A stretch of 64,000 nt of DNA from Escherichia coli (GTDB lineage Bacteria > Pseudomonadota > Gammaproteobacteria > Enterobacterales > Enterobacteriaceae): the NCBI GenBank assembly GCA_025336685.1, contig GCA_025336685.1_4717.1; one strand, 5' to 3'. The notes beneath the pieces were generated by a model. That model searched no databases, was not told where the DNA came from, and saw only the letters and a program-made list of their open reading frames with translations. Below, piece after piece: positions 4,442-39,330 of the stretch (the stretch's first letter is position 1; every line of letters begins with the position of its first letter). Made by a program: the position numbers and the translations under genes.

Positions 4442-4899
4442 GATTCGTAACCACCTTCATGCGGTAACGTATTGCTGGTGTCAGGCCAGACAAGCTGAAT
4501 GCCCGCAACTTTTTTACCATATCGAGCGACAGCAGCTATCGCATACACTTCATTGAAGGATTCAATATCTTCAATTTCGCGTACGTCGAGACGCAACGTT
4601 TCGCCTGTACCCTTCAAAGTCAGATTGCCGTCGAACGCACCTAACGGGATGGTCTTTGCCTTCACCATGAAGTTACCCAGCTTGTTGATTGCTGAACCAA
4701 GGGCAGGGCAGTAACCGGACACGAAGATTTCCGGCATCCCATGTTCGGTTAGACCAACAGTATACATAAAGCCGGGCTCGTCGCTTCCCTCATCAGGAGC
4801 GACACCGACAATAGCCCACTGCTTTTTCTCGATATATTCTTCGACAAAATCGTCCAGTTTTGAAAAATTGTTTTCATTAAGTTTAACTGTGTTACTCAT
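4414..4899 (-). CDS. hypothetical protein
   Basis: 161-aa ORF MSNTVKLNENNFSKLDDF... Confidence 0.5.
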   Translation of the reverse strand: MSNTVKLNENNFSKLDDFVEEYIEKKQWAIVGVAPDEGSDEPGFMYTVGLTEHGMPEIFVSGYCPALGSAINKLGNFMVKAKTIPLGAFDGNLTLKGTGETLRLDVREIEDIESFNEVYAIAAVARYGKKVAGIQLVWPDTSNTLPHEGGYESCCCPQILL

Positions 4900-5203: not shown

Positions 5204-5512
5204 TTAGTGAAGAATTACTGTTTGCGATCCGTTCTCGTATTCAGCAAGTAACTCGTCGTACCGACGATCAACTGTCTTGATCGCATTATCAATCTCCGAC
5301 ATGTCTGATGCCGTAGATCGTTTCGCTTCCAGTCGATATACTAACGCATCACGCATACCCTCGGCTGCAGCGAGTTCACAGGTTGCTTGATGTTTATTAT
5401 CCGAAAAGACGAAGAACGGTTTGTTTTCTTCATCAGCCAAGAAGTAGTCACGAATCGCAACCAACCTTTCTTCTGGAACCAGTTCACAATTGTTTTCGTT
5501 CATTTTCATCAT
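5204..5512 (-). CDS. hypothetical protein
   Basis: 102-aa ORF. Confidence 0.45.
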   Translation of the reverse strand: MMKMNENNCELVPEERLVAIRDYFLADEENKPFFVFSDNKHQATCELAAAEGMRDALVYRLEAKRSTASDMSEIDNAIKTVDRRYDELLAEYENGSQTVILH

Positions 5513-11268: not shown

Positions 11269-11289
11269 AGCCTCCCATTACGGGAGGCT
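11269..11289 (-). terminator. hairpin AGCCTCCC/GGGAGGCT followed on the minus strand by UUUUAUGCCG
   Basis: 8-bp stem, then U-rich tract. Confidence 0.5.
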
Positions 11290-11301
11290 CCATCAATCAA
11301 C

Positions 11302-11850
11302 TTACTTCACGAGAACAGTGAATTCGAGAACGTAAATAGTCTCGTCATCCATCGGATTTGTCGTGGTATAACCAACAAAGCAATAACCCATATCCGCGAT
11401 AAAATCGCTAAGTTTATCAACATCGCCTACATTGATACGATCATCAACAGACAGACGACATTTACGGGTTATACCACATCCGCGAGGAACACCGGATAAC
11501 ACGGATAGGAAATGCGCGATCCGGTTATTGGTTGCGAACTGTGCATAATCGCCGTAGCGTTTAAGGTCCTTCATCGCAACCTCGACAGCCATACGACGAC
11601 CAGGCGCTACGTATTCAGTGTACGCATACGCTGCGATCGTACGACGATCTTCAGTCAGGTAAGTATTCCCATCAGGATGGTAGCTCTCGATTGTTCCGTC
11701 TTCATAGGTGACGTTTACAACAGGTGCACCGTACTCGTCGCGACCGAATTCAATCTTGCATTTATCCGAAAGCGGTAGAATCGTACACGGTTTTGCGTTG
11801 TTCTCATCGGGGAGATTATAACCGCTCATCATTTTCAAAAAGATAGACAT
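11302..11850 (-). CDS. hypothetical protein, tandem paralog A
   Basis: MSIFLKMMSGYNLPDENNAKP...TIAAYAYTEY aligns with the adjacent 11937..12470 product; RBS GAGGT. Confidence 0.5.
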   Translation of the reverse strand: MSIFLKMMSGYNLPDENNAKPCTILPLSDKCKIEFGRDEYGAPVVNVTYEDGTIESYHPDGNTYLTEDRRTIAAYAYTEYVAPGRRMAVEVAMKDLKRYGDYAQFATNNRIAHFLSVLSGVPRGCGITRKCRLSVDDRINVGDVDKLSDFIADMGYCFVGYTTTNPMDDETIYVLEFTVLVK

Positions 11851-12907: not shown

Positions 12908-13222
12908 TTATTCTGCTTTAGGCGATGAACCGTTCTTTTTGAAGTCGGATTCGTATTTCACGTTAGAATCGAGAACCTCACGAACGGTTTTATCCGTACA
13001 ACCACGGGCGATGTATGCATTAAGATCGTCGCGTAATTTACGCATTGTTGTTTTATCCGCATCAGAAACATCTGACTTGGTAAGACGGAACGCAATCGCA
13101 TCACGAATTTTATTCAACATTGCTGGGTTATTACGCTGTTCTGCAAATACCGCTTTGATGAACTTATCGCTATCTTTCGAAGCGATGGCTGCATCAAGAA
13201 TCTCAATATGCTTTTCAGACAT
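12908..13222 (-). CDS. hypothetical protein
   Basis: 104-aa ORF, RBS AAAGGAA. Confidence 0.5.
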   Translation of the reverse strand: MSEKHIEILDAAIASKDSDKFIKAVFAEQRNNPAMLNKIRDAIAFRLTKSDVSDADKTTMRKLRDDLNAYIARGCTDKTVREVLDSNVKYESDFKKNGSSPKAE

Positions 13223-25006: not shown

Positions 25007-25345
25007 TTAGAACCAGAGTTCTTTCATGAGGTAGGCTTCCATATCGTAGATAAGCCACTCGTCAGGAATTTCTAAAGGATCGTCTTCGGTTAAGGTCAGC
25101 ATGTGCAGGGCGAACGCACGCTTAATATCGTTCAGCAGTTTCTCGTCGTCGTAACCTTCGGGTAGTTTACGGTCTACCAGTTGGGTTTGTTTATAGACAG
25201 CACAGAACGCTTCAGGGCTATGTTTGTCCATCGGAAATTGTTCGGCGGCCTGGACCATCGTCAACGTCCAGCTTACAACATTGTAACGCTCACCGTTAAT
25301 TTCACTGAACTGATCATCGATTAAACAGATTTGTTGTACGTTCAT
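25007..25345 (-). CDS. hypothetical protein
   Basis: 112-aa ORF. Confidence 0.45.
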   Translation of the reverse strand: MNVQQICLIDDQFSEINGERYNVVSWTLTMVQAAEQFPMDKHSPEAFCAVYKQTQLVDRKLPEGYDDEKLLNDIKRAFALHMLTLTEDDPLEIPDEWLIYDMEAYLMKELWF

Positions 25346-26303: not shown

Positions 26304-27878
26304 TTACAATTCAAAATCTTCATCGATAACGCGCTGGGTAAGCACTTTGTCGCTGAAGAACTCCACCTTGCGCTGATGGTATTTACGATGCGCTTCGATA
26401 GAAGTACATACCAGATACCAGAAGGTTGGCGTCATTCCTTCAAACTTCCCTTTCAGCTGACGCAGTCGCCCCAACACCTGAATGTTACCGGTTCGTGACC
26501 CCATCGCTAACGTCATGAACGCCATCACCAAGTCAGGAAGGTCGATGCCCGTACCTGCCGATTTCACCGTCGTAACGCTAATATCGTTATCCAACAAGAC
26601 CATGAAATCTTCTTCAGCCGTATAAGGACCGATCTCTAACTCAGGAATACGTTCACTGAGATAATGCGACAACGACTTACACATATCAACGGTTGCACAA
26701 TACACCAGCATCTTCATACCTTCCTGATACTGGTTCATGAAACCTTTGATGATAACCGTATAGATAAAGTTGAAATACGCGAGTTTGAGCTGCTTGTTCT
26801 TCATGATAGACTGTTCGAATATCGTGTGAGAATAAGAACCCCCAAACCCTTTGTATCTGACTTTATCTGTACTACGTAGTCGATACGTCACGGCATTTAC
26901 CGCAATGTATTTCTTGTATTCGCCTTTCGCATAACGGGCTTCTTTCGGATACATCAAATACAACATCCGCTCGATGAACGGATCATCGGACACCGCCGTT
27001 GCTGACAGATAGATGATTTCCGGAATACTAGCGTAACACTTGACCTTAAACAAGAAATGCAATGCTTCATGGCACTCGTCATGAATCAGAAGGCCTATGC
27101 CGGTCTTTTCCCAAAACTCAGCGGGATGAAAGGCATACGGCGCAACGCAGTTATTCTTCTCGTAGTCCGCAATATAACGTTGGAACATGTTCAAGGAGAA
27201 CAATGCGATTTTGAAGTCGAGTTCACCTTGTTCAACCAAGGTTTGAAACTCCAACATACTGTAACGAGGAATGTCGGGATGCGGTGGATCCTCCTTAGCG
27301 TTCCCGCGTATCTCGATAACGTCCCCTGGTTCCATCCCGAAGAAGTTCAGCAGTGAGCTTCGCCAACCTGGCATGTATCTCGGCGACAGAATGATACCCG
27401 TCCGTACACCGCGTCGGAAGGTAATCTCCTGCGACATGGCCGTTTTTCCCGACCCTGTTTGAGCGGTGTTTAGACTCATTCTGAAGGGGGTATCCTTACC
27501 CCCATTCATGTACTCCAACCATTCTTGCTGATCTTCACGCCATGGGAACTTCCATTTCTTTACGAACTCCACTTCTTTACCTGGTGCCGGATCGTGATAA
27601 ACGATTTCCAACCACTCTTTTCGTATCCCTCGGGAAAAGATAAAATCCAAAAACGATTTCAACTGTTCGCGGAGTAAGTATACCTCGCTATAATCGCTTC
27701 TCGCTGCGGCATACGTGTTTATGGTATCGGTAACCATTCTCCGTGTACGAGGGTCGCGCCGTTTCCTCAGATGCAAACAACGGTCTCGAAGGTAATGGCC
27801 GATAAGATGGGCAAATCGAAGTCCGTATCCGCTCAGCTTCATGCCATGCGAGAAGACGTCGATACGAGCTAACTTCAT
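26304..27878 (-). CDS. SF2 DExH-box helicase
   Basis: Walker A TGSGKT, motif II LIHDECHE; ATGA overlap with upstream stop. Confidence 0.7.
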   Translation of the reverse strand: MKLARIDVFSHGMKLSGYGLRFAHLIGHYLRDRCLHLRKRRDPRTRRMVTDTINTYAAARSDYSEVYLLREQLKSFLDFIFSRGIRKEWLEIVYHDPAPGKEVEFVKKWKFPWREDQQEWLEYMNGGKDTPFRMSLNTAQTGSGKTAMSQEITFRRGVRTGIILSPRYMPGWRSSLLNFFGMEPGDVIEIRGNAKEDPPHPDIPRYSMLEFQTLVEQGELDFKIALFSLNMFQRYIADYEKNNCVAPYAFHPAEFWEKTGIGLLIHDECHEALHFLFKVKCYASIPEIIYLSATAVSDDPFIERMLYLMYPKEARYAKGEYKKYIAVNAVTYRLRSTDKVRYKGFGGSYSHTIFEQSIMKNKQLKLAYFNFIYTVIIKGFMNQYQEGMKMLVYCATVDMCKSLSHYLSERIPELEIGPYTAEEDFMVLLDNDISVTTVKSAGTGIDLPDLVMAFMTLAMGSRTGNIQVLGRLRQLKGKFEGMTPTFWYLVCTSIEAHRKYHQRKVEFFSDKVLTQRVIDEDFEL

Positions 27879-29881
27879 AACGTGAATACATCCTCCGGTT
27901 TAGGTTCTTTGCGCGGTAAAAGCATGTAGTCGATCGGATGATCCGGCTTCATGGTTGGGATATAACTGTTCGGGTTTTGGAACGCATCCAGCTGCTCTTG
28001 GTGAGCGAACTTCATACTCAAGGAGCGCATGTTCATGTTCTTCTTGAAGGTACTGAAGTATCGTGTTGTTCCCTGTTTCGGCATGCGATAATCTTTCGTG
28101 TGTGGTGAACGAATCATGCTAGCGTAGAGAATAACATCGAGATGCGAAAGGTTCATTCGCAGACGCTGGGCACACAGGCGATGCCAATAGTACAGCACGT
28201 TTGCAACTTCTTCCGGTGTAGCTTCGTCTTCCGAGAGGAATCCGGCACTGAAAGAACCTTTCCCGAATTTGAACTCACGTTCGATTTCTTTTGCGTACTC
28301 CATCATGTTTTTGTGGATTAACGGCATCTGGAATAACGTACGTGAATTGTCCCAGTGTTTCAAGTCGAAAATCACAATCCCGTCAGACGTCACTTCCCAG
28401 CTATGGCGTTTAAGATAACGGATAAACGCTTTACTCGGTACAACAGGACGTCCGCAGAAATCGAAATTGACTTTGAGCTTACGATAGCTTTCATCTTTCC
28501 TGTCGTAAATCTCCATATCGCAAAGCGTCATGTTAAACAGACGCTGTGGTATCAGCGAACTGATTTCTTCCGCTTCAGCTACATCGTACAACATGTTCGC
28601 AAGACCTAACTTCATCTTAATCAACACGTGTTTACCTTTCAGCTCACGTGCGAGTTTGATGTCGTTCATGTTCTGGCTGTAGCGAAGGATATGTTGATAT
28701 TCCGGTGGGATTGGTGCTGTGGATACCGTTGACGAACCATCGTGGTGTTTGGTAGAAAGAATGTTCTGCGTTACCTGTTGCGAGCAGGTACGTGCTGCAC
28801 CATCACCGACATTATCAGTCAATGCGAAGTTATGGCTCAATTCACCATAACACGTCGTGCATACCCCAGCAGGATCGGGATGATGACAATAGTTAACGGA
28901 GCGCATGCGTACCGTCGTGCCGATCAATTCTTTCATGTGTGGTTGTATCGCTACCAACGAACCGTCATCACGAATAATGAATCGACCGTGGAAGCCGCGT
29001 AGGTCGGTCTCATCACGGATTGGCATCGGGATGGCCTCTCTACTACCACAATCACCAGGATGTAGTCGTTGCACAACCGCTGTCGCTATCTGAAGTTCGC
29101 GACCGAAATATTCGGACTTTTTAATCTGCTCTTTGTTGAACAGCAGCGATTTCGCCGCAGAACGACTTTCTTTCAAGCTGTCAGGAAGAGAGATCAAACC
29201 GGCTGCATACGACCGCATTACCGGATCGCGGAATATCTCGGAGTTAATATCGGTCAAGAATCCACGCATCCCAATACACTGTAGCACCTGCCCAATCGAA
29301 ACGTGTTCGGTTCTTACCGCACGTGCGATAGGGTTTGCATGTAACGTTTTATCGGTGCTCAGTACCTTTGTCAATTTCTTGTATGCGCTTTCGATACCTT
29401 CGCGGGTGGGTTCCGCTTCAGCGATGATTTTCTTAACTTCAGGGTGTACAGTAATCTGATAAAAATCGTCCGCACAAATAGTTGTTACGTATTCCTCCAA
29501 CGCATACGTAAAGAAGTTATACACATTGTTAAACATATCGAACAATGCTTTCCAGAGAACCTCACGATTCTCTTGTGGGTAAGCATACATGCATTGACGA
29601 TACGCTGCGCTTTGCAACGCAACCGACGAACCAGCAGTAAACTTGCGTTTATCCACCAGGTTCTCTTTTGTCAATGGTGTCTCAGGATACATGCGATGCA
29701 CAGACCAGTGCATGTAACTAAAGAAAATGCGTCGTGCGCGCAATTCATGAACGCCATCGTCCATCTCGATATATACACGGTCGTTAGGCTGTGCCCACTC
29801 GAATACCTCATCAACCGGCCAGTGCATAAGCTCGCGTGCCCTCACACGACGTTTCGTGGTGGTCGTCTGTGTTGTAGTCAT
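27875..29881 (-). CDS. multisubunit RNA polymerase beta-prime-like subunit, C-terminal module
   Basis: CTTCYGELSHNFALTDNVGDGAARTCSQQVTQNILSTKHHDGSS parallels bacterial beta-prime CxxCYG...GxAIGxIAAQSIGEPGTQLTMRTFHxGG. Confidence 0.65.
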   Translation of the reverse strand: MTTTQTTTTKRRVRARELMHWPVDEVFEWAQPNDRVYIEMDDGVHELRARRIFFSYMHWSVHRMYPETPLTKENLVDKRKFTAGSSVALQSAAYRQCMYAYPQENREVLWKALFDMFNNVYNFFTYALEEYVTTICADDFYQITVHPEVKKIIAEAEPTREGIESAYKKLTKVLSTDKTLHANPIARAVRTEHVSIGQVLQCIGMRGFLTDINSEIFRDPVMRSYAAGLISLPDSLKESRSAAKSLLFNKEQIKKSEYFGRELQIATAVVQRLHPGDCGSREAIPMPIRDETDLRGFHGRFIIRDDGSLVAIQPHMKELIGTTVRMRSVNYCHHPDPAGVCTTCYGELSHNFALTDNVGDGAARTCSQQVTQNILSTKHHDGSSTVSTAPIPPEYQHILRYSQNMNDIKLARELKGKHVLIKMKLGLANMLYDVAEAEEISSLIPQRLFNMTLCDMEIYDRKDESYRKLKVNFDFCGRPVVPSKAFIRYLKRHSWEVTSDGIVIFDLKHWDNSRTLFQMPLIHKNMMEYAKEIEREFKFGKGSFSAGFLSEDEATPEEVANVLYYWHRLCAQRLRMNLSHLDVILYASMIRSPHTKDYRMPKQGTTRYFSTFKKNMNMRSLSMKFAHQEQLDAFQNPNSYIPTMKPDHPIDYMLLPRKEPKPEDVFTL

Positions 29882-30026: not shown

Positions 30027-30512
30027 TTATCCAGCTTCCTGTTGTAAAGCGTATGGATCCATAGCGTCTGACATATTCGCAAAAACGGTGAGAATAAACC
30101 CCTTTATCTGTCTCACCTCGGTTACACGAAGCCCTTTATCATTACGGTATACGTTTTCTTCACCGACCAACTTCGGCCTGACAGCATAAACCCCATCAAC
30201 AAACGGGAATGTCGGATACGGATAAACGCCGATACGAATGATGTTTGGGTAATCACCTCGAAGGTCACGCCCAAATGTATCTACTCTACCGTAAACCGTT
30301 CCATCCACACCCTCCACTTCAATGAGATCATTTCGAATATCCTGAAATAGCTGCTCTAACGTGTCGGCGGGGTACGTATATGCGACACCTAACGCTGGAT
30401 CCTCAATGGTTTTGACACTGAATCCGTTAAGCCAAACAATCTGTTCATCCGCCCATGTTTCTTCATATACCGTTAATCCATCGCCGTATATGTTGGCGTG
30501 TGCTATCTCCAT
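30027..30512 (-). CDS. hypothetical protein
   Basis: 161-aa ORF. Confidence 0.45.
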   Translation of the reverse strand: MEIAHANIYGDGLTVYEETWADEQIVWLNGFSVKTIEDPALGVAYTYPADTLEQLFQDIRNDLIEVEGVDGTVYGRVDTFGRDLRGDYPNIIRIGVYPYPTFPFVDGVYAVRPKLVGEENVYRNDKGLRVTEVRQIKGFILTVFANMSDAMDPYALQQEAG

Positions 30513-30626
30513 AATCTCATTTCCTCTTATACGTTAGGATAGATGACATGTTGGATATACGTTGCCTTTGCATATATTGCTTTATTTCCGTCAGAAATAA
30601 CGGAAAATAAAAACAACGACATAGTT

Positions 30627-30656
30627 CCCTCCCACCTCCACACGGGAGAGGGAGGG
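30627..30656 (-). terminator. hairpin CCCTCCC ... GGGAGGG
   Basis: 7-bp outer stem downstream of the 30670 stop. Confidence 0.4.
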
Positions 30657-30669
30657 TTAGTCATGTTTA

Positions 30670-31035
30670 TTACTCTATGCTGTCTTCTTCAGCACAATCC
30701 TCTTCGGAACCGTCGAACGTTTTCTGCACCGCGGTGGTATCCCAGTTGGCGGCGTAATCAGCCATCGCTTCGCGCAACGCTTCTTCACCAGCATCACCGG
30801 CCAGGTCAAGCACAACCAAACCTTGCGCGACGTTTTGAGCGACTGTATCAATAACGGTTGCATCTTCTTCAAAACTACGTACCGGTTCAATGGTGCCTAC
30901 ATCAACAGCATAGTTCGTGGTCGCTGTAAGCACGGCGACTTGTAGCGCATCGCTATTATCATCATCATGCAATGCTGCTTCAATACCGATTGGACGGGCC
31001 AGTTCTTGCAGTGTTAATTTGCGAATTAAGTTCAT
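30670..31035 (-). CDS. small acidic protein
   Basis: 121-aa ORF with acidic C-terminus. Confidence 0.45.
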   Translation of the reverse strand: MNLIRKLTLQELARPIGIEAALHDDDNSDALQVAVLTATTNYAVDVGTIEPVRSFEEDATVIDTVAQNVAQGLVVLDLAGDAGEEALREAMADYAANWDTTAVQKTFDGSEEDCAEEDSIE

Positions 31036-31068
31036 TATGTTTTTCCTCAGGTGAATGTTAGCGATCGT

Positions 31069-31416
31069 TTAAAACTTTAAAACTTTTTCGATACGATGGT
31101 TGACAAGTTCATTGAACGATTCTTCAACTTGTTCAATAATTTCATCAACGTCGATATCTAATTGTTGGGGTTGGATAACATGCTCTTTCATGGTTTCTAG
31201 CCAGTATTCGGCTTTAACCATAACGTTAGCTACTTGTTCAACCTGACTACGTATGTCGACGATCTGACAGTCAGGATTTTTAATGTCGATGATGTGTCCA
31301 TGATGATTGATAAAACCTAGCTTATTCGTTGCTTTTACTGCATCGCGGGCAAGTTCTTGCAGGATTAAATTATTTACGTAGTTCACTGCTATGGAACGAT
31401 TTTCTTTATCACTCAT
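31069..31416 (-). CDS. small acidic protein
   Basis: 115-aa ORF; shares an LxLQELAR segment with the 30670..31035 product. Confidence 0.45.
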   Translation of the reverse strand: MSDKENRSIAVNYVNNLILQELARDAVKATNKLGFINHHGHIIDIKNPDCQIVDIRSQVEQVANVMVKAEYWLETMKEHVIQPQQLDIDVDEIIEQVEESFNELVNHRIEKVLKF

Positions 31417-31495
31417 ACCAGGGATCCTCTTTTTAAGTCTTCACATTCTAGTGTTAAGCAGTTAAAATAAACCGTCCCTTTAATCAGCATAAACA

Positions 31496-31525
31496 TCCTC
31501 CTCCCACCACATGGGTAGGAGGAGG
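31496..31525 (-). terminator. hairpin CCTCCTCC ... GGAGGAGG followed by AUGUUUAUGCUG
   Basis: 8-bp stem; a GTAATATA word sits between the upstream stop and the hairpin. Confidence 0.4.
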
Positions 31526-31536
31526 CGTAATATACA

Positions 31537-31947
31537 TCAGAAAGGAGGACGATCTTTAAATTCTAGCAACGTGTCTTCGAAGCAAGCGATGAGTTCAGAC
31601 TGCAATTCTGTTCGGCCTTGTTCACCGAAAAGTTCCAGCAACATTAACCCCCGAGCGGTCTTCGTAGCAACCTCTTCGCAGATACAGAGATTGTGGACTT
31701 CATCATCGTCAACATCTTTACGTAACTGTGCCGCAATGGGCTTAAGATTGCCGTTTTCATCGTATTCGTCACGAAATGCATCATAAGCCGCATCGATGTT
31801 CGCTATCCGTGTCAATCCTTCAGAATCCCGCCAGTCTCGATATAATCCAAGCAGACGGTTATGATTCTTCGTTTTGATGTTCGGTGCCGGAAGGTTGCGT
31901 AACAGATGTGGTGTAATCCTTGCTATAACGCTATCCGAATGGTCCAT
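31537..31947 (-). CDS. hypothetical acidic protein
   Basis: 136-aa ORF. Confidence 0.45.
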   Translation of the reverse strand: MDHSDSVIARITPHLLRNLPAPNIKTKNHNRLLGLYRDWRDSEGLTRIANIDAAYDAFRDEYDENGNLKPIAAQLRKDVDDDEVHNLCICEEVATKTARGLMLLELFGEQGRTELQSELIACFEDTLLEFKDRPPF

Positions 31948-31958
31948 CGTTTACCTCG

Positions 31959-34127
31959 CTAGCTTTCGCAGTCATCTGCGTCGATGATTTGTCCACCGGC
32001 AACGTTCAGTTGATGATACAGAATCCTCAACGCACGGTTACCACCAATGGGATACTTCTCGAAGTTGGTCGCAATAGGAATCGCTGACGGCTTATCGGTC
32101 GCATAGATGCTTTCAGTGATGCTATCCACCTGTTTTGGATTGTTTGCATAGTCCATAAAGACGCTCGCAAACCACCCACCAGCAAAGGCGGTAACTTCGC
32201 GATGTTCAGATTCACCACAGTAACGAGTTGGTTGCTCTTTACCAGGAGAACTGTACTTATCGCTATTACTGAGTTTCGACGGTAATCCGTGCGCTTGCAG
32301 TTTAGGAATACCCACCGCTGACCAATCGTTCGCCGTCTTCTCCAACATCATGATGTACGTGTCACCGATCGCAATATCGTTCTTGGTTGTCCGCCACTGC
32401 CCAGAACGTCCGCGGTACCGTACAGGACCTTTCTTCAACGGGAACTCACGAATCAGATTCTCCATACGTTCTGAACCCGCTGCGATACTGTCTGTCGGGA
32501 TATAAACTTCCGTACCGTGGCGTTGTACGTACCGTAAATGATCCCATTTATCCTCATCCGTGATACAGTATTTTTCAACAACCTGTTCCACGAACTCAGG
32601 ACTGACGATATAGTAGTAGCGCATCAGTGTGTTCCAAGCGGTCTCCAGATCGCCTGCATCCATCACTGGTTTCAGCTCACGCATGATCTGGTCACCAACA
32701 CCGTTGATGTATGGCGCATTAACACGACTTAAACTCATCCTTTTGATTACCGTGCTATCGTCAAACATAAAGTCCGCAACGTTACCCCATTGGTCAACCG
32801 GCATTTCATCGTCTTCCATGATGTCGGTTACGACGAATTTATCACCCGCCATACCCGTGAATTTAAACCCGATACCTGGAACAACGTCATACGTGTACGT
32901 GATGGTCACACGCCAATCATCGAGATTCTCTTTACGGTAATCGCGGGTTGGTAATACATGACGTAGCTGTCCGTTAGGATTGCGGATATCAATACCGTGT
33001 TCAGCATCAGCCAGGTTCAACCACCACATCACCGTTTGATGATGACGTATCGGCGTACCAACGCGTTCACGTTCGTACTTACGAACAGCATCCTGAATTC
33101 GGGTGTAAAGCAAACCGATTGCGTTTTCATATTTCAGGAATTGACGATACGGAGGACGCATCTTCTCTTCCATCATAATCGCACGCTCGCGGGCTTGACG
33201 TCCAGAACGACGATGTCGATCGCTGACAACATCGATATCCGTTACACGCGCATTCGGTTCAGCGTAAGTGAGATCATCGTAAACATAATCCACGCGCTGA
33301 AGGTTACACGTCATCATGTCAACAACGCTGAGGATAGGATCTATTTCGCGTGTTGCTGCAAGCAACCCATCCTTACGAATGCGCTCACCGTTCTCGGGTA
33401 TTGCTTGGTATACTTCGTCATCACCGTAGAGATTGATTGGGTATCGCGATTTACCTGATGTAATTGTTCGCTTCTCAATACCAGTACTGGTGAAATGCTT
33501 CAATACACCGCGACGGGCAACGCCACCATCTTCAATACACTGGTAGAAGCTACCGAAACACACCTTGCAATCGCGACCGTAACCCCACTCACGTGTTTCT
33601 TGATTGATCGCTGGGCTTTCCATCAAACGAGAATATCGTGGTACGATCTGGCCTCGACGAAGGGAATGGAACAAGTTGGTTGGTCGAAAACGGAAACCGT
33701 ACTGCTGATGCATGATGTGATGCTCGGGCACTTCAAGCAAGCGTAGCTCGTGACGGTTACCATCCTCTTGGTTTTCATACAGCACGTAATGCATCGTGTT
33801 TGTTTTGATGCTGTTTGCTGTATGCCCTGGTTGAAACCGCGGAATGATATCTATGATGCGAGATTCAACTGGAAACTCTACTGACCAAGTGTTTTGTCCG
33901 TACTGGTATTCAATCCCCGTCGTTAGTCGGGACGGCTTCGCATCTTTGATAACCAACGCTTGGCTAAGATGTCCACCAAACATCGCAGCGCGCTGTGCTG
34001 AGTTATAATGCAATAGCCCGTTAAGTCCAGTCCCTACGCCAGTATACTCCTGTTTAATGGGAATGATTTTACCTTCAGCGATTGCCTGCTTCACAGATTC
34101 ATAAAGAGGTTTTTCTTTATAATGCAT
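31959..34127 (-). CDS. multisubunit RNA polymerase beta-like subunit, C-terminal module
   Basis: GDKFVVTDIMEDDEMPVDQWGNVADFMFDDSTVIKRMSLSR parallels beta GDKxAGRHGNKGV..EDMP..G.P.D..LNPLGVPSRMN; GESEHREVTAFAGGW parallels GEMEVWALEAYGA; ATG 34127 (MHYKEKPLY) with AGGAAG RBS instead of track start 34292. Confidence 0.65.
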   Translation of the reverse strand: MHYKEKPLYESVKQAIAEGKIIPIKQEYTGVGTGLNGLLHYNSAQRAAMFGGHLSQALVIKDAKPSRLTTGIEYQYGQNTWSVEFPVESRIIDIIPRFQPGHTANSIKTNTMHYVLYENQEDGNRHELRLLEVPEHHIMHQQYGFRFRPTNLFHSLRRGQIVPRYSRLMESPAINQETREWGYGRDCKVCFGSFYQCIEDGGVARRGVLKHFTSTGIEKRTITSGKSRYPINLYGDDEVYQAIPENGERIRKDGLLAATREIDPILSVVDMMTCNLQRVDYVYDDLTYAEPNARVTDIDVVSDRHRRSGRQARERAIMMEEKMRPPYRQFLKYENAIGLLYTRIQDAVRKYERERVGTPIRHHQTVMWWLNLADAEHGIDIRNPNGQLRHVLPTRDYRKENLDDWRVTITYTYDVVPGIGFKFTGMAGDKFVVTDIMEDDEMPVDQWGNVADFMFDDSTVIKRMSLSRVNAPYINGVGDQIMRELKPVMDAGDLETAWNTLMRYYYIVSPEFVEQVVEKYCITDEDKWDHLRYVQRHGTEVYIPTDSIAAGSERMENLIREFPLKKGPVRYRGRSGQWRTTKNDIAIGDTYIMMLEKTANDWSAVGIPKLQAHGLPSKLSNSDKYSSPGKEQPTRYCGESEHREVTAFAGGWFASVFMDYANNPKQVDSITESIYATDKPSAIPIATNFEKYPIGGNRALRILYHQLNVAGGQIIDADDCES

Positions 34128-34158
34128 AGGACTTCCTATTATCGAATTGAGGTACGTC

Positions 34159-34512
34159 ATGTCTAACACGCCCCTGAACGACTTTCTTAAGACAAACCCC
34201 GATGACCTCATCCACGATCTTGATTTCAGGAACGTTGTTGAGATGCATCTGGAATATTTCAAAAATGCCGGACTGGTCTCTACGATAGACATACCACCCG
34301 AACGCGCCTACGAATTCGATGGTAACTTTTATGGATTGTGTCGTGTTCTGCTCGGCGAGGGCAGTGAATCAATGCACTGGATCACCATGAGACTCAATGG
34401 TTATCGCGACCCTACGGAATACACCGCCGATGTTCTAACCATGAAGATTGTCGATACAAGCGCAATCAACACATTAAAACAACAGTACCGCACAATCCAC
34501 TACAGCGCTTAA
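34159..34512 (+). CDS. hypothetical protein
   Basis: Track start is TTG at 34147; ATG 34159 (MSNTPLNDF) has GAGG RBS; divergent from the beta-like gene. Confidence 0.45.
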   Translation: MSNTPLNDFLKTNPDDLIHDLDFRNVVEMHLEYFKNAGLVSTIDIPPERAYEFDGNFYGLCRVLLGEGSESMHWITMRLNGYRDPTEYTADVLTMKIVDTSAINTLKQQYRTIHYSA

Positions 34513-39088: not shown

Positions 39089-39180
39089 AACAACCTCTTT
39101 TCGCGGTTCCCTGTTGAAACGTCTTCTGTGACGTCTACCACAAAGGTAACATTTATGTCGCCTCTATGACTTTGTTCATA

Positions 39181-39202
39181 GAGGTAATATAAGCGTGAAT
39201 AA
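39181..39202 (-). promoter_or_regulatory. conserved promoter-like motif (TATATTAC core), copy 2
   Basis: Plus strand GAGGTAATATAAGCGTGAATAA, ~95 nt upstream of start 39088; overlaps hairpin CCTCTATGA/TCATAGAGG. Confidence 0.45.
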
Positions 39203-39330
39203 TTTTGGATTCCAGCTGAGTTATCGCTCAGCATGCAAGGCATCCCGCCGAAGCGAGACACCTTGCACTAACGGAAAGTATTCGCGTTACCTTCTGAGTC
39301 TTCGATTCAGAATGCGAAGCTAAAGCATTA

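Follow-up and report, generated by a model that had tools for sequence, protein, structure and literature searches.

Gene Content and Organization of the Locus

The window, a stretch of 64,000 nucleotides, comes from the genome of a Goslar-like E. coli chimallivirus (jumbo phage) that shares 93.5% nucleotide identity with Escherichia phage vB_EcoM_Goslar (Goslar). Its minus strand carries three small genes, here designated A, B, and C, and a fourth gene homologous to Goslar gp166. All four are placed between two genes that the paper on the Goslar virion labels, in its Table S4, as subunits of the non-virion RNA polymerase, nvRNAP (bioRxiv 10.64898/2026.04.21.720040). The genes and ORFs of the region are as follows:

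27875..29881, minus strand, nvRNAP subunit gene, gp165 homologue, downstream flank of the insertion
30027..30512, minus strand, gp166 homologue, 161 aa, acidic (pI 4.3), fourth gene of the insertion
30670..31035, minus strand, gene A, 121 aa, orthologue of Goslar gp168 (98% aa identity)
31069..31416, minus strand, gene B, 115 aa, orthologue of Goslar gp169 (94% aa identity)
31413..31490, minus strand, upstream ORF (MLIKGTVYFN...), 25 codons, its stop overlapping the B start (ATGA)
31537..31947, minus strand, gene C, 136 aa, orthologue of Goslar gp170 (95% aa identity)
31959..34127, minus strand, nvRNAP subunit gene, gp171 homologue, 722 aa with Goslar's start, upstream flank of the insertion

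Gene C starts 11 bp past the nvRNAP beta-like gene. The gene order and flanks are identical to those of Goslar gp168, gp169, and gp170 (YP_009820853-55), which are annotated as hypothetical proteins. The differences from Goslar are minor and comprise a one-residue indel in A relative to gp168, a changed C-terminus of B relative to gp169 (KF against NDC), and an A5 tract ahead of B, which is A4 in Goslar. In relatives with a shorter A-tract, the 25-codon upstream ORF is fused in frame to B. The dN/dS values against Goslar were 0.019 for A, 0.071 for B, 0.097 for C, and 0.18 for the gp166 homologue, that of A being as low as in the flanking RNAP genes. Because the dN/dS values are low and peptides have been reported, A, B, and C are real expressed proteins under purifying selection.

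Lineage Distribution and Database Searches

The nvRNAP gene pair abuts in Erwinia phage Mortimer and Ralstonia phage RSL2, and A, B, and C are absent there. The whole set is kept in six Goslar-like genomes, while a divergent relative (L002) has only the homologues of C and A (C' and A'), adjacent to each other, with B missing. A, B, C, and the gp166 homologue form a lineage-specific accessory cassette of ~2.1 kb that splits the two nvRNAP genes. Genome, protein, and metagenome searches confined the A, B, and C families to the Goslar lineage and L002. With tblastn, A, B, and C matched Goslar only among 50,697 phage records, and in a database of 5.8 billion proteins solely relatives at 88-99% identity and the divergent A homologue A' (P0024) were recovered. 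When the A profile was run exhaustively with HMMER against 1.84 billion representatives, two clusters and no more were found, and the C profile retrieved only Goslar-like genomes from IMG/VR and metagenomes. Since the cassette is absent from other chimalliviruses with the nvRNAP and nucleus, and its families are confined to one lineage, A, B, and C are not core components. B is an unrelated gene, present between A and C in the Goslar lineage only. At the conserved nvRNAP gene pair, Goslar-like phages have thus gained accessory genes and duplicated them. Being located within the nvRNAP operon, the cassette might have a role connected with transcription instead of the decoy function proposed below.

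For A, B, C, gp166, A', and C', searches of Pfam, PHROGs, NCBIfam, and PDB sequences gave nothing better than sub-threshold noise, and no DNA-mimic or acidic decoy family such as Ocr, ArdA, Arn, or Ugi matched A, B, or C above the cut-offs in these databases. Neither a PF12699 nor a DUF7941 domain was detected in A, B, or C by the Pfam scan. One match of C to PDB 7y9n (E 7e-5) was rejected as an artefact, because its alignment crosses an engineered GGSGGS linker and the match was counted twice in a repeated construct; each stretch alone gave E 2.8. In the searchable literature, no essentiality or localization data and no published function were found for gp168-170.

Sequence Relationships among A, B, and C

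The first-pass annotation, made from the sequence of the window, noted a motif LxLQELAR near the N-termini of A and B as a weak sign of relatedness; homology was found instead between A and C, a relationship that the annotation had missed and that is carried by reciprocal profile matches. The segments concerned are as follows:

30757..30864, minus strand, shared core in A, residues 58-93, DATVIDTVAQNVAQGLVVLDLAGDAGEEALREAMAD
31585..31692, minus strand, shared core in C, residues 86-121, NLCICEEVATKTARGLMLLELFGEQGRTELQSELIA
30994..31017, minus strand, motif LTLQELAR of A, residues 7-14
31345..31368, minus strand, motif LILQELAR of B, residues 17-24

The alignment of the A/C core comprised eight sequences and 40 columns without gaps, with the consensus VAxxxAxGLxxLxLxGexG...L, and the N-terminal parts attached to it differ between A and C. 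Comparison of the A and C families with hhalign yielded E 3e-4 and a probability of 40% over 36 columns. Smith-Waterman z values for A-C comparisons were 5.1-7.6 (shuffle P ≤ 3e-4), with scores of 66 for A against C' (z 7.6), 50 for A' against C, and 45 for A' against C'. The best non-self match of the C profile was A, with E 2.7e-4 among 728 window ORFs and 9.3e-4 among 2,629 Goslar ORFs; reciprocally, the best non-self match of the A profile was C (E 0.027 and 0.066, respectively). The A-C pair ranked second of 630 small-protein pairs. On the strength of these alignments, A and C are distant tandem paralogues sharing a core of 36-40 residues. No further paralogues were found with the A, B, C, and core profiles among the 2,629 Goslar six-frame ORFs.

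The LxLQELAR motif is indeed present in both A and B, which share 8 of 14 N-terminal residues, and BLASTP of this single pair gave E 0.004. The reservation already attached to the pair, that its relatedness is weak and may be chance, was borne out. Profile-profile comparison, the check that had been proposed, revealed no similarity above background (hhalign probability 3%, E 0.014), the Smith-Waterman shuffle P was 0.022, and by score A-B took 18th place among the 630 small-protein pairs and 5th among the 54 adjacent pairs of the window. The B-family profile matched neither A nor C among the 728 window ORFs or the 2,629 Goslar six-frame ORFs. At the motif position A' has QSLLEVLR, and its comparison with B gave P = 0.54. 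By these measures, the motif match between A and B is background, not above chance.

Several features could nevertheless suggest that all three proteins belong to one tandem paralogue family, B having diverged too far except for its N-terminal motif: the genes are adjacent and encode 115-136 aa with acidic C-terminal halves, A and B have the N-terminal residues noted above in common, and a weak three-way resemblance is visible by eye around EQVANVMVKAEYWLE in B. This is highly improbable, given that hhalign returned probabilities of 3% for A-B and 0.06% for B-C, that B and joint A+C core profiles gave no cross-match (with the latter, B was unmatched even at E ≤ 10), and that the predicted order of secondary-structure elements differs between A and B, although both models are poor. 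Moreover, B is missing where C' and A' adjoin in L002, which suits a later insertion of B. The gp166 homologue has no relation to A, B, or C.

Acidity and Predicted Structure

Protein A has a pI of 4.05 and a net charge of -21 (-0.17 per residue), ranking first in acidity among 83 non-overlapping ORFs of the window. B and C carry -0.07 per residue and rank 7th and 8th, and the gp166 homologue ranks 5th. Four consecutive genes are thus in the top eight, for which a permutation test, chosen post hoc, gave P = 0.0027; grouping A, B, and C as acidic neighbours, as was done initially, is justified. The acidic C-terminal halves are likewise present as first noted. In A the N- and C-terminal halves have net charges of -7 and -14, in B of 0 and -8, and in C of -2 and -7, so the C-terminal halves are the more acidic ones. 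Extreme acidity is restricted to A. About 10% of the other phage proteins are at least as acidic as B and C. Acidity by itself argues only weakly for a decoy function, because even the median protein of the phage is mildly acidic and B and C do not stand out.

The charge of A is partly located in its C-terminal end:

30673..30741, minus strand, acidic C-terminal tail of A, residues 99-121, net charge about -8

The sequence of this tail varies among relatives, and its strong acidity is always kept. It has no regular structure in the AlphaFold2 model of A, which is itself poor; the mean pLDDT values were 39.6 for A and 54.0 for B, and the models are unusable.

Transcription and RNA Elements

In Goslar RNA-seq data, gp168-170 belong to the early class, and after ChmA knockdown they showed log2 fold changes of +0.6 to +1.1; nvRNAP, chimallin, and PhuZ responded similarly, and the values were -3 to -7 for gp41, gp7, gp22, gp23, gp58, gp60, gp61, gp88, gp208, and gp209 (bioRxiv 10.1101/2023.09.20.558163). 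The latter set covers the capsid protein and every modelled or GFP-validated virion protein checked, i.e., nucleus-dependent, late genes. The late nucleus-dependent expression of validated packaged proteins is therefore not shared by gp168-170. Read density was uniform across gp165-gp175, and early transcripts persist through the infection cycle. The elements identified around the cassette are as follows:

39175..39210, minus strand, nearest upstream phiKZ-type early promoter, ATCCAAAATTATTCACGCTTATATTACCTCTATGAA, 38 bits against a matrix of eight Goslar sites
31497..31525, minus strand, G+C-rich hairpin directly after the C stop, 12-bp stem and 5-nt loop
30627..30656, minus strand, G+C-rich hairpin directly after the A stop, followed by a T-rich tract

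A, B, and C have no early promoter of their own and belong to the early virion-RNAP-dependent class, in a long unit with the nvRNAP genes. Given its matrix score and the even read density, the promoter at 39175..39210 is probably the one from which this unit, cassette included, is transcribed. The early promoter core TATATTAC is quoted in PMC7058600. A copy of TATATTAC at 31527..31534, just past the C stop, was rejected as a separate promoter for B-A: it scored -51 bits against 38-52 bits for real sites and is not conserved, Goslar having TGCATATTAC. Goslar conserves the hairpin after C, with an A-to-G change that keeps the base pair, and in L002 a hairpin and a T-run occupy the same position. 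The ATG of the upstream ORF lies 6 nt past GGAGGAGG, the 3' arm of the hairpin.

The common early class and read density, the location between two nvRNAP genes, and the constraint on A, similar to that on the RNAP genes, would also fit A, B, and C being accessory factors of the phage nucleus or nvRNAP, as shell-associated, assembly, or regulatory partners. Their occurrence in the virion preparation alongside the shell proteins chimallin and ChmC, and PhuZ (see below), would agree with such a role. We regard it as rather unlikely, since chimalliviruses with the same nvRNAP and nucleus lack the cassette, whose families are found in the Goslar lineage and one relative, and since nvRNAP subunits are essentially absent where A and B are abundant.

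Occurrence in the Virion Proteome

Label-free mass spectrometry of Goslar virions gave ~219 copies of gp168, ~92 of gp169, and ~3 of gp170, gp168 being among the 12 most abundant unmodelled virion proteins; gp166 was present at ~1 copy and the nvRNAP subunits at 0-0.25 (bioRxiv 10.64898/2026.04.21.720040). The same preparation contained 126 copies of chimallin, 171 of PhuZ, 78 of ChmC, and many E. coli proteins, and GFP imaging confirmed gp60, gp61, gp208, and gp209 as virion proteins, that is, four of the four other abundant proteins tested (bioRxiv 10.64898/2026.04.21.720040); in the literature, tagging to follow capsid localization and injection covers these four. The mRNA density of gp170 and the nvRNAP subunits is similar to that of A and B, yet they reach 0-3 copies, so that A and B are enriched about 30- to >800-fold over their co-transcribed neighbours in the sample. 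Similar mRNA levels with unequal copy numbers imply that the enrichment is due to something post-transcriptional, which could be true packaging, as early transcripts last through the cycle; this leaves a gap in the explanation by co-purification given below. The near absence of nvRNAP subunits from this A- and B-rich sample means that neither A nor B is a stoichiometric partner of nvRNAP.

According to one reading of these numbers, A and B are virion-packaged internal proteins of ~100-200 copies, possibly injected with the DNA into the early infection vesicle, with LxLQELAR as the packaging signal. Their copy numbers against the near absence of the motif-less gp170, gp166, and nvRNAP despite similar mRNA argue in this direction, as does the full GFP confirmation rate of the other abundant proteins; furthermore, among the Goslar six-frame ORFs, gp168 and gp169 alone contain the motif in a degenerate form, although the pattern was derived from these two. 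We nevertheless find packaging doubtful. Both genes are early, whereas all modelled or GFP-validated virion proteins checked are late, and chimallin, PhuZ, and ChmC are found in the preparation at similar apparent copies together with host proteins. The motif itself is at background level, degenerate in A', and not found in other abundant Goslar virion proteins; on the last ground, together with the peptide data below, it was rejected as a capsid-targeting or propeptide signal.

The peptides listed also give no sign of N-terminal processing: none of them is a semi-tryptic one that begins behind the candidate G-I-E site. For gp169, the reported coverage of 41.38% from three peptides can be made up only from lengths of 17+19+12 residues, with SIAVNYVNNLILQELAR among them; by this coverage arithmetic, the motif peptide of B would be present in the virion sample. 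In the peptide data, an intact C-terminal peptide of A, DGSEEDCAEEDSIE, was detected (bioRxiv 10.64898/2026.04.21.720040).

In general terms, A and B may be likened to the T4 internal proteins IPI, IPII, IPIII, and Alt, which carry an N-terminal capsid-targeting sequence: they too are neighbouring small proteins with a short N-terminal motif and both are in the virion sample. They differ in that their motif is at chance level, shows no cleavage sign, and is not carried by other abundant proteins of the Goslar virion. Similarly, gp168 and gp169 share high apparent virion copy numbers with the packaged or injected chimallivirus proteins, namely the PF12699 'inner body' group (gp58, gp53) and gp60 and gp61; these are late and nucleus-dependent, however, whereas gp168 and gp169 are early, much smaller, and without PF12699.

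When high-copy virion-associated proteins were crossed with the RNA-seq data, two clean classes were obtained, one late, with all validated members, and one early. The early class (gp158, gp214, gp70, gp162, gp168, and gp169) behaves like the non-virion proteins chimallin, PhuZ, and ChmC, a practical caution for readers of the Goslar virion proteome. Most likely, gp168 and gp169 are seen in virions not through packaging but because, like chimallin, PhuZ, and ChmC, they are made early in large amounts and carried along in purification. This has to be weighed against the proposal that the six early proteins form an unrecognised class of small acidic proteins that are early-transcribed yet truly in virions, being pre-loaded, injected with the genome, and re-made at once to act in the first minute as an electrostatic shield or decoy, either for the DNA entering the cell or for the virion RNA polymerase, with LxLQELAR as a real targeting element; we hold this proposal to be very unlikely.

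Proposed Function

The whole is best explained, although tentatively and at somewhat less than even chances, by an accessory cassette with A and C as paralogues, its products being early binders, A a decoy, and their occurrence in the virion sample a result of co-purification. Under this explanation, A, B, and C would be early accessory proteins acting through protein-protein binding, not enzymes or structural parts. Protein A would combine a frozen helical core with a fast-evolving, always acidic tail. Its most likely role, proposed with low confidence, would be that of an electrostatic decoy that mimics nucleic acid or binds basic surfaces and in this way inhibits or chaperones a nucleic-acid-binding protein of the host or the phage. 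The initial suggestion of DNA mimics or inhibitors of host enzymes is, for A, compatible with early expression and its extreme charge.

T7 Ocr, T4 Arn, PBS2 Ugi, lambda Gam, and T7 gp5.9 are small acidic early phage mimics or decoys. In a general comparison, A is like them in being small, of very low pI and high negative charge density, expressed early, and a lineage-specific accessory protein. B and C differ from that group in being only moderately acidic, and none of the three proteins has sequence similarity to it. The finding is an ordinary one with modest stakes; within the cluster, only gp168, which is extremely acidic and under polymerase-like constraint, merits a test for host- or phage-directed binding.

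Identity and layout of the locus

The window shares 93.5% nucleotide identity with Escherichia phage vB_EcoM_Goslar, a jumbo phage of the Chimalliviridae that forms a nucleus. The three minus-strand ORFs (A, B, and C) that the first-pass annotation had described as a cluster of small acidic proteins were all present and correspond to Goslar genes annotated as 'hypothetical protein'. The features of the locus are as follows:

30027..30512, gp166 homologue, acidic ORF of 161 aa, adjoining A-B-C on one side
30627..30656, G+C-rich hairpin following A
30670..31035, minus strand, gene A, 121 aa, orthologue of Goslar gp168
31069..31416, minus strand, gene B, 115 aa, orthologue of Goslar gp169
31497..31525, G+C-rich hairpin following C
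31537..31947, minus strand, gene C, 136 aa, orthologue of Goslar gp170

The large flanking genes (gp165 and gp171 homologues) are labelled as non-virion RNA polymerase (nvRNAP) subunits in the Goslar literature. The genes between them, termed here the cassette, have existing entries as hypothetical proteins in a phage that has been studied before, and they hold no great surprise; the anatomy of the locus as described here is held with high confidence. Goslar gp167 (31 aa as annotated) corresponds to 30527..30664 on the minus strand, between A and the gp166 homologue. Its ORF starts within or just past the hairpin 3' of A, its published read density is ~3-fold below that of its neighbours, and it is a doubtful gene. 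Taken at its longest, the ORF of the nvRNAP beta-like gene reaches 55 codons upstream of the Goslar-annotated start (34128..34292) and overlaps the oppositely oriented gp172 homologue (34147..34512). Since gp172 belongs to the inner baseplate according to the Goslar virion structure, a structural gene lies on the other strand inside the early nvRNAP block.

Coding status and distribution of the cassette

A, B, and C are real genes. The dN/dS values between the window and Goslar were 0.019 (A), 0.071 (B), 0.097 (C), and 0.18 (gp166), with A at the same low level as the polymerase genes on either side (0.012 and 0.000), and peptides of all three proteins have been reported by mass spectrometry (MS) for Goslar. 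Within the Goslar group, residues 1-100 of A are near-invariant; the last ~20 residues are free to vary in sequence, yet remain strongly acidic throughout. A 25-codon upstream ORF, MLIKGTVYFNCLTLECEDLKRGSLV (31413..31490, minus strand), precedes B; its stop overlaps the B start (ATGA), and its own start lies 6 nt past GGAGGAGG, within the 3' arm of the hairpin following C. The A-tract ahead of the B ribosome-binding site varies in length (A3, A4, or A5; L010-L015, ~4480-4530). The A3 form fuses the upstream ORF in frame to B, which accounts for B isoforms of 139-140 aa in roughly half the database clusters.

In the sequence searches, the A, B, and C families were confined to Goslar-like phages. 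Goslar alone was matched by tblastn among 50,697 phage records. Searches of 5.8 billion proteins returned relatives at 88-99% identity plus one divergent protein (P0024), and the A profile, run exhaustively with HMMER against 1.84 billion representatives, gave two clusters. Matches in IMG/VR and metagenome scans came solely from Goslar-like genomes, all with the order gp171-C-B-A-gp166-gp165. The two nvRNAP genes abut in Erwinia phage Mortimer and in Ralstonia phage RSL2, with the same helicase gene coming next. The cassette is thus a lineage-specific insertion of ~2.1 kb splitting the nvRNAP gene pair of a conserved core block. This insertion is newly described here. P0024 is carried by L002, a Logan assembly of 3.9 kb with an nvRNAP gene at 66% identity; there, a C homologue that has diverged strongly (C', 29% identity) is directly followed by the A homologue P0024 (A'), with no B between them. 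This arrangement fits B having inserted later, on the downstream side of the hairpin 3' of C.

Transcription

An extended early promoter of the phiKZ type (...TTTCACGGCTATATTACyTAnGTGA) is clear in Goslar, and one copy of it lies 73 bp upstream of chmA; the core TATATTAC has been quoted for phiKZ and 201phi2-1 (PMC7058600). With a scoring matrix built from eight Goslar sites, four such promoters (38-51 bits) were located on the minus strand of the window at ~51012, 44487, 39210, and 21171 (first base of the 36-mers), the first being the counterpart of the chmA promoter. From this promoter map, the cassette is placed in a long early unit predicted to start at ~39210. Another TATATTAC copy, at 31527..31534 just past the C stop, scored -51 bits and was not conserved and is therefore a chance match.

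Published RNA-seq data compare control infections with a knockdown of ChmA (chimallin), which halts infection at the vesicle stage, with the virion RNAP alone active (bioRxiv 10.1101/2023.09.20.558163, Sup. Table 2). The log2 fold changes of gp168, gp169, and gp170 were +0.6 to +1.1, as for the nvRNAP genes, chimallin, and PhuZ, and those of structural genes, the capsid protein gene included, were -3 to -7 (bioRxiv 10.1101/2023.09.20.558163). The read density computed from these data was uniform from gp165 to gp171 (~1,400-1,650 reads per kb). The assignment of A, B, and C to the early class is new.

Both hairpins of the locus belong to a CCTCC...GGAGG class with 15 pattern matches against 0.24 expected; members in the window lie at 11271, 12868, 19316, 21240, 24960, 30628, 31497, 34519, 45327, 52285, and 60581. 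They are probably terminators or RNA-stability elements. The Goslar record carries no terminator annotation for the two flanking B-A, and the published read density at 30 mpi shows no visible drop across them.

Relationships among A, B, and C

A first hhalign run matched 34 columns (A residues 58-91 with C residues 86-119); once C' was added, the A-C match covered 36 columns (E = 3e-4, probability 40%). Smith-Waterman scores were 52 for A-C (z 5.1, P 3e-4), 66 for A-C' (z 7.6), 50 for A'-C, and 45 for A'-C'. Forty columns aligned gap-free across eight sequences of both families, with conserved V, A, G, L, L, G, and G positions. In a leave-one-family-out profile test over 728 window ORFs and 2,629 Goslar ORFs, the best non-self match of the C profile was A (E 2.7e-4 and 9.3e-4, respectively), and that of the A profile was C (E 0.027 and 0.066). 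The pair ranked second of 630 small-protein pairs. On these results, A and C are distant tandem paralogues, a relationship not previously described, with a common C-terminal module and different N-terminal parts. A profile search of the Goslar genome found no further A/C paralogue. Elsewhere in the window, the adjacent ORFs starting at 11302 and 11937 are clear tandem paralogues (Smith-Waterman 132), and the ORFs at 5204..5512 and starting at 12908, with the top score (59) of the 630 pairs, may be related.

The first-pass annotation had linked A to B through an N-terminal LxLQELAR motif, with the caution that the resemblance was weak and perhaps due to chance. The motif exists (LTLQELAR, A residues 7-14; LILQELAR, B residues 17-24), but the match is not above chance, and the caution was right. 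BLASTP gave E = 0.004 in a single comparison, the shuffle test P = 0.022, and hhalign of the family alignments a probability of 3% (E = 0.014). The Smith-Waterman score of 39 ranked 18th of 630 pairs of 80-180 aa window proteins and fifth of 54 adjacent pairs, three of the higher ones having no evident relationship. In P0024, the sole divergent A homologue (48-50% identical), the motif position reads QSLLEVLR, and no similarity to B was found (shuffle P = 0.54). A degenerate form of the motif occurred within the Goslar genome only in gp168 and gp169, the two proteins from which the pattern had been built. A single three-member family, which would have B join the A-C pair, is very unlikely; a search of the complete six-frame ORF sets of the window and of the whole Goslar genome with the B-family profile matched neither A nor C. 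For A-B, profile comparison thus gave the outcome that the first-pass annotation had named as refuting the link.

Residues 38-50 of B (~31267..31305) make up INHHGHIIDIKNPDCQ, a stretch of the form HHGH...C that a low-confidence model places in a beta-hairpin. H39, G40, H41, and C50 are invariant across the B family, so the stretch may be a small metal-binding site.

Acidity and possible function

The C-terminal halves were the more acidic in all three proteins (N/C net charge -7/-14 in A, 0/-8 in B, and -2/-7 in C). Among 83 non-overlapping window ORFs used as a proxy gene set, A was the most acidic protein (pI 4.05, net -21, -0.17 per residue), and the gp166 homologue, B, and C ranked fifth, seventh, and eighth. 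Four consecutive genes within the top eight gave a permutation P of 0.0027 (post hoc test). The acidic grouping is thus real, but extreme in A only, and the earlier observation as a whole is partly confirmed. The second most acidic ORF was the gp162 homologue (25007..25345, minus strand, 112 aa, pI 4.3).

Family and PDB sequence searches assigned no family, fold, or homologue indicating a function for A, B, or C, and the AlphaFold2 models were unusable (pLDDT 39.6 for A and 54.0 for B). In early expression, small size, and accessory, lineage-specific distribution, A, B, and C match accessory proteins that phages make early and that work by binding, acidic DNA-mimic decoys included. A does so further in its extreme conserved negative charge, frozen core, and variable acidic tail. 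By this analogy, A might act early by binding, as an accessory protein of the decoy type; this is the likeliest mechanism for A, proposed tentatively and with low confidence. B and C are regarded as unassigned partners or paralogues. A nucleus- or nvRNAP-associated role of these products, encoded between two nvRNAP subunit genes, is considered unlikely.

Virion association

In purified Goslar virions, gp168 ranks in the top twelve unmodelled proteins by abundance and has no clearly predicted function (bioRxiv 10.64898/2026.04.21.720040). Table S4 of that study puts gp168 at ~219 copies, gp169 at 92, gp170 at 3, gp166 at 1, and the nvRNAP subunits at 0-0.25; its entries also include PhuZ (171), chimallin (126), and ChmC (78), together with many E. 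coli proteins (bioRxiv 10.64898/2026.04.21.720040). Crossing the virion MS data with the RNA-seq classes gave a clean two-way split: all modelled or GFP-validated virion proteins checked (gp41, gp7, gp22, gp23, gp58, gp60, gp61, gp88, gp208, and gp209) were nucleus-dependent, whereas gp168, gp169, gp158, gp214, gp70, and gp162 were early, like the non-virion PhuZ, chimallin, and ChmC. Packaging is therefore judged improbable, and co-purification more likely, for gp168 and gp169; their early-class assignment tempers the published 'virion-associated' label. A and B were nevertheless ~30- to >800-fold enriched over co-transcribed neighbours of equal mRNA density, so something specific and post-transcriptional acts on them. 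Within the published 'virion-associated' set, the six early proteins make up a subset of early genes; gp162 is present there at ~127 copies (bioRxiv 10.64898/2026.04.21.720040).
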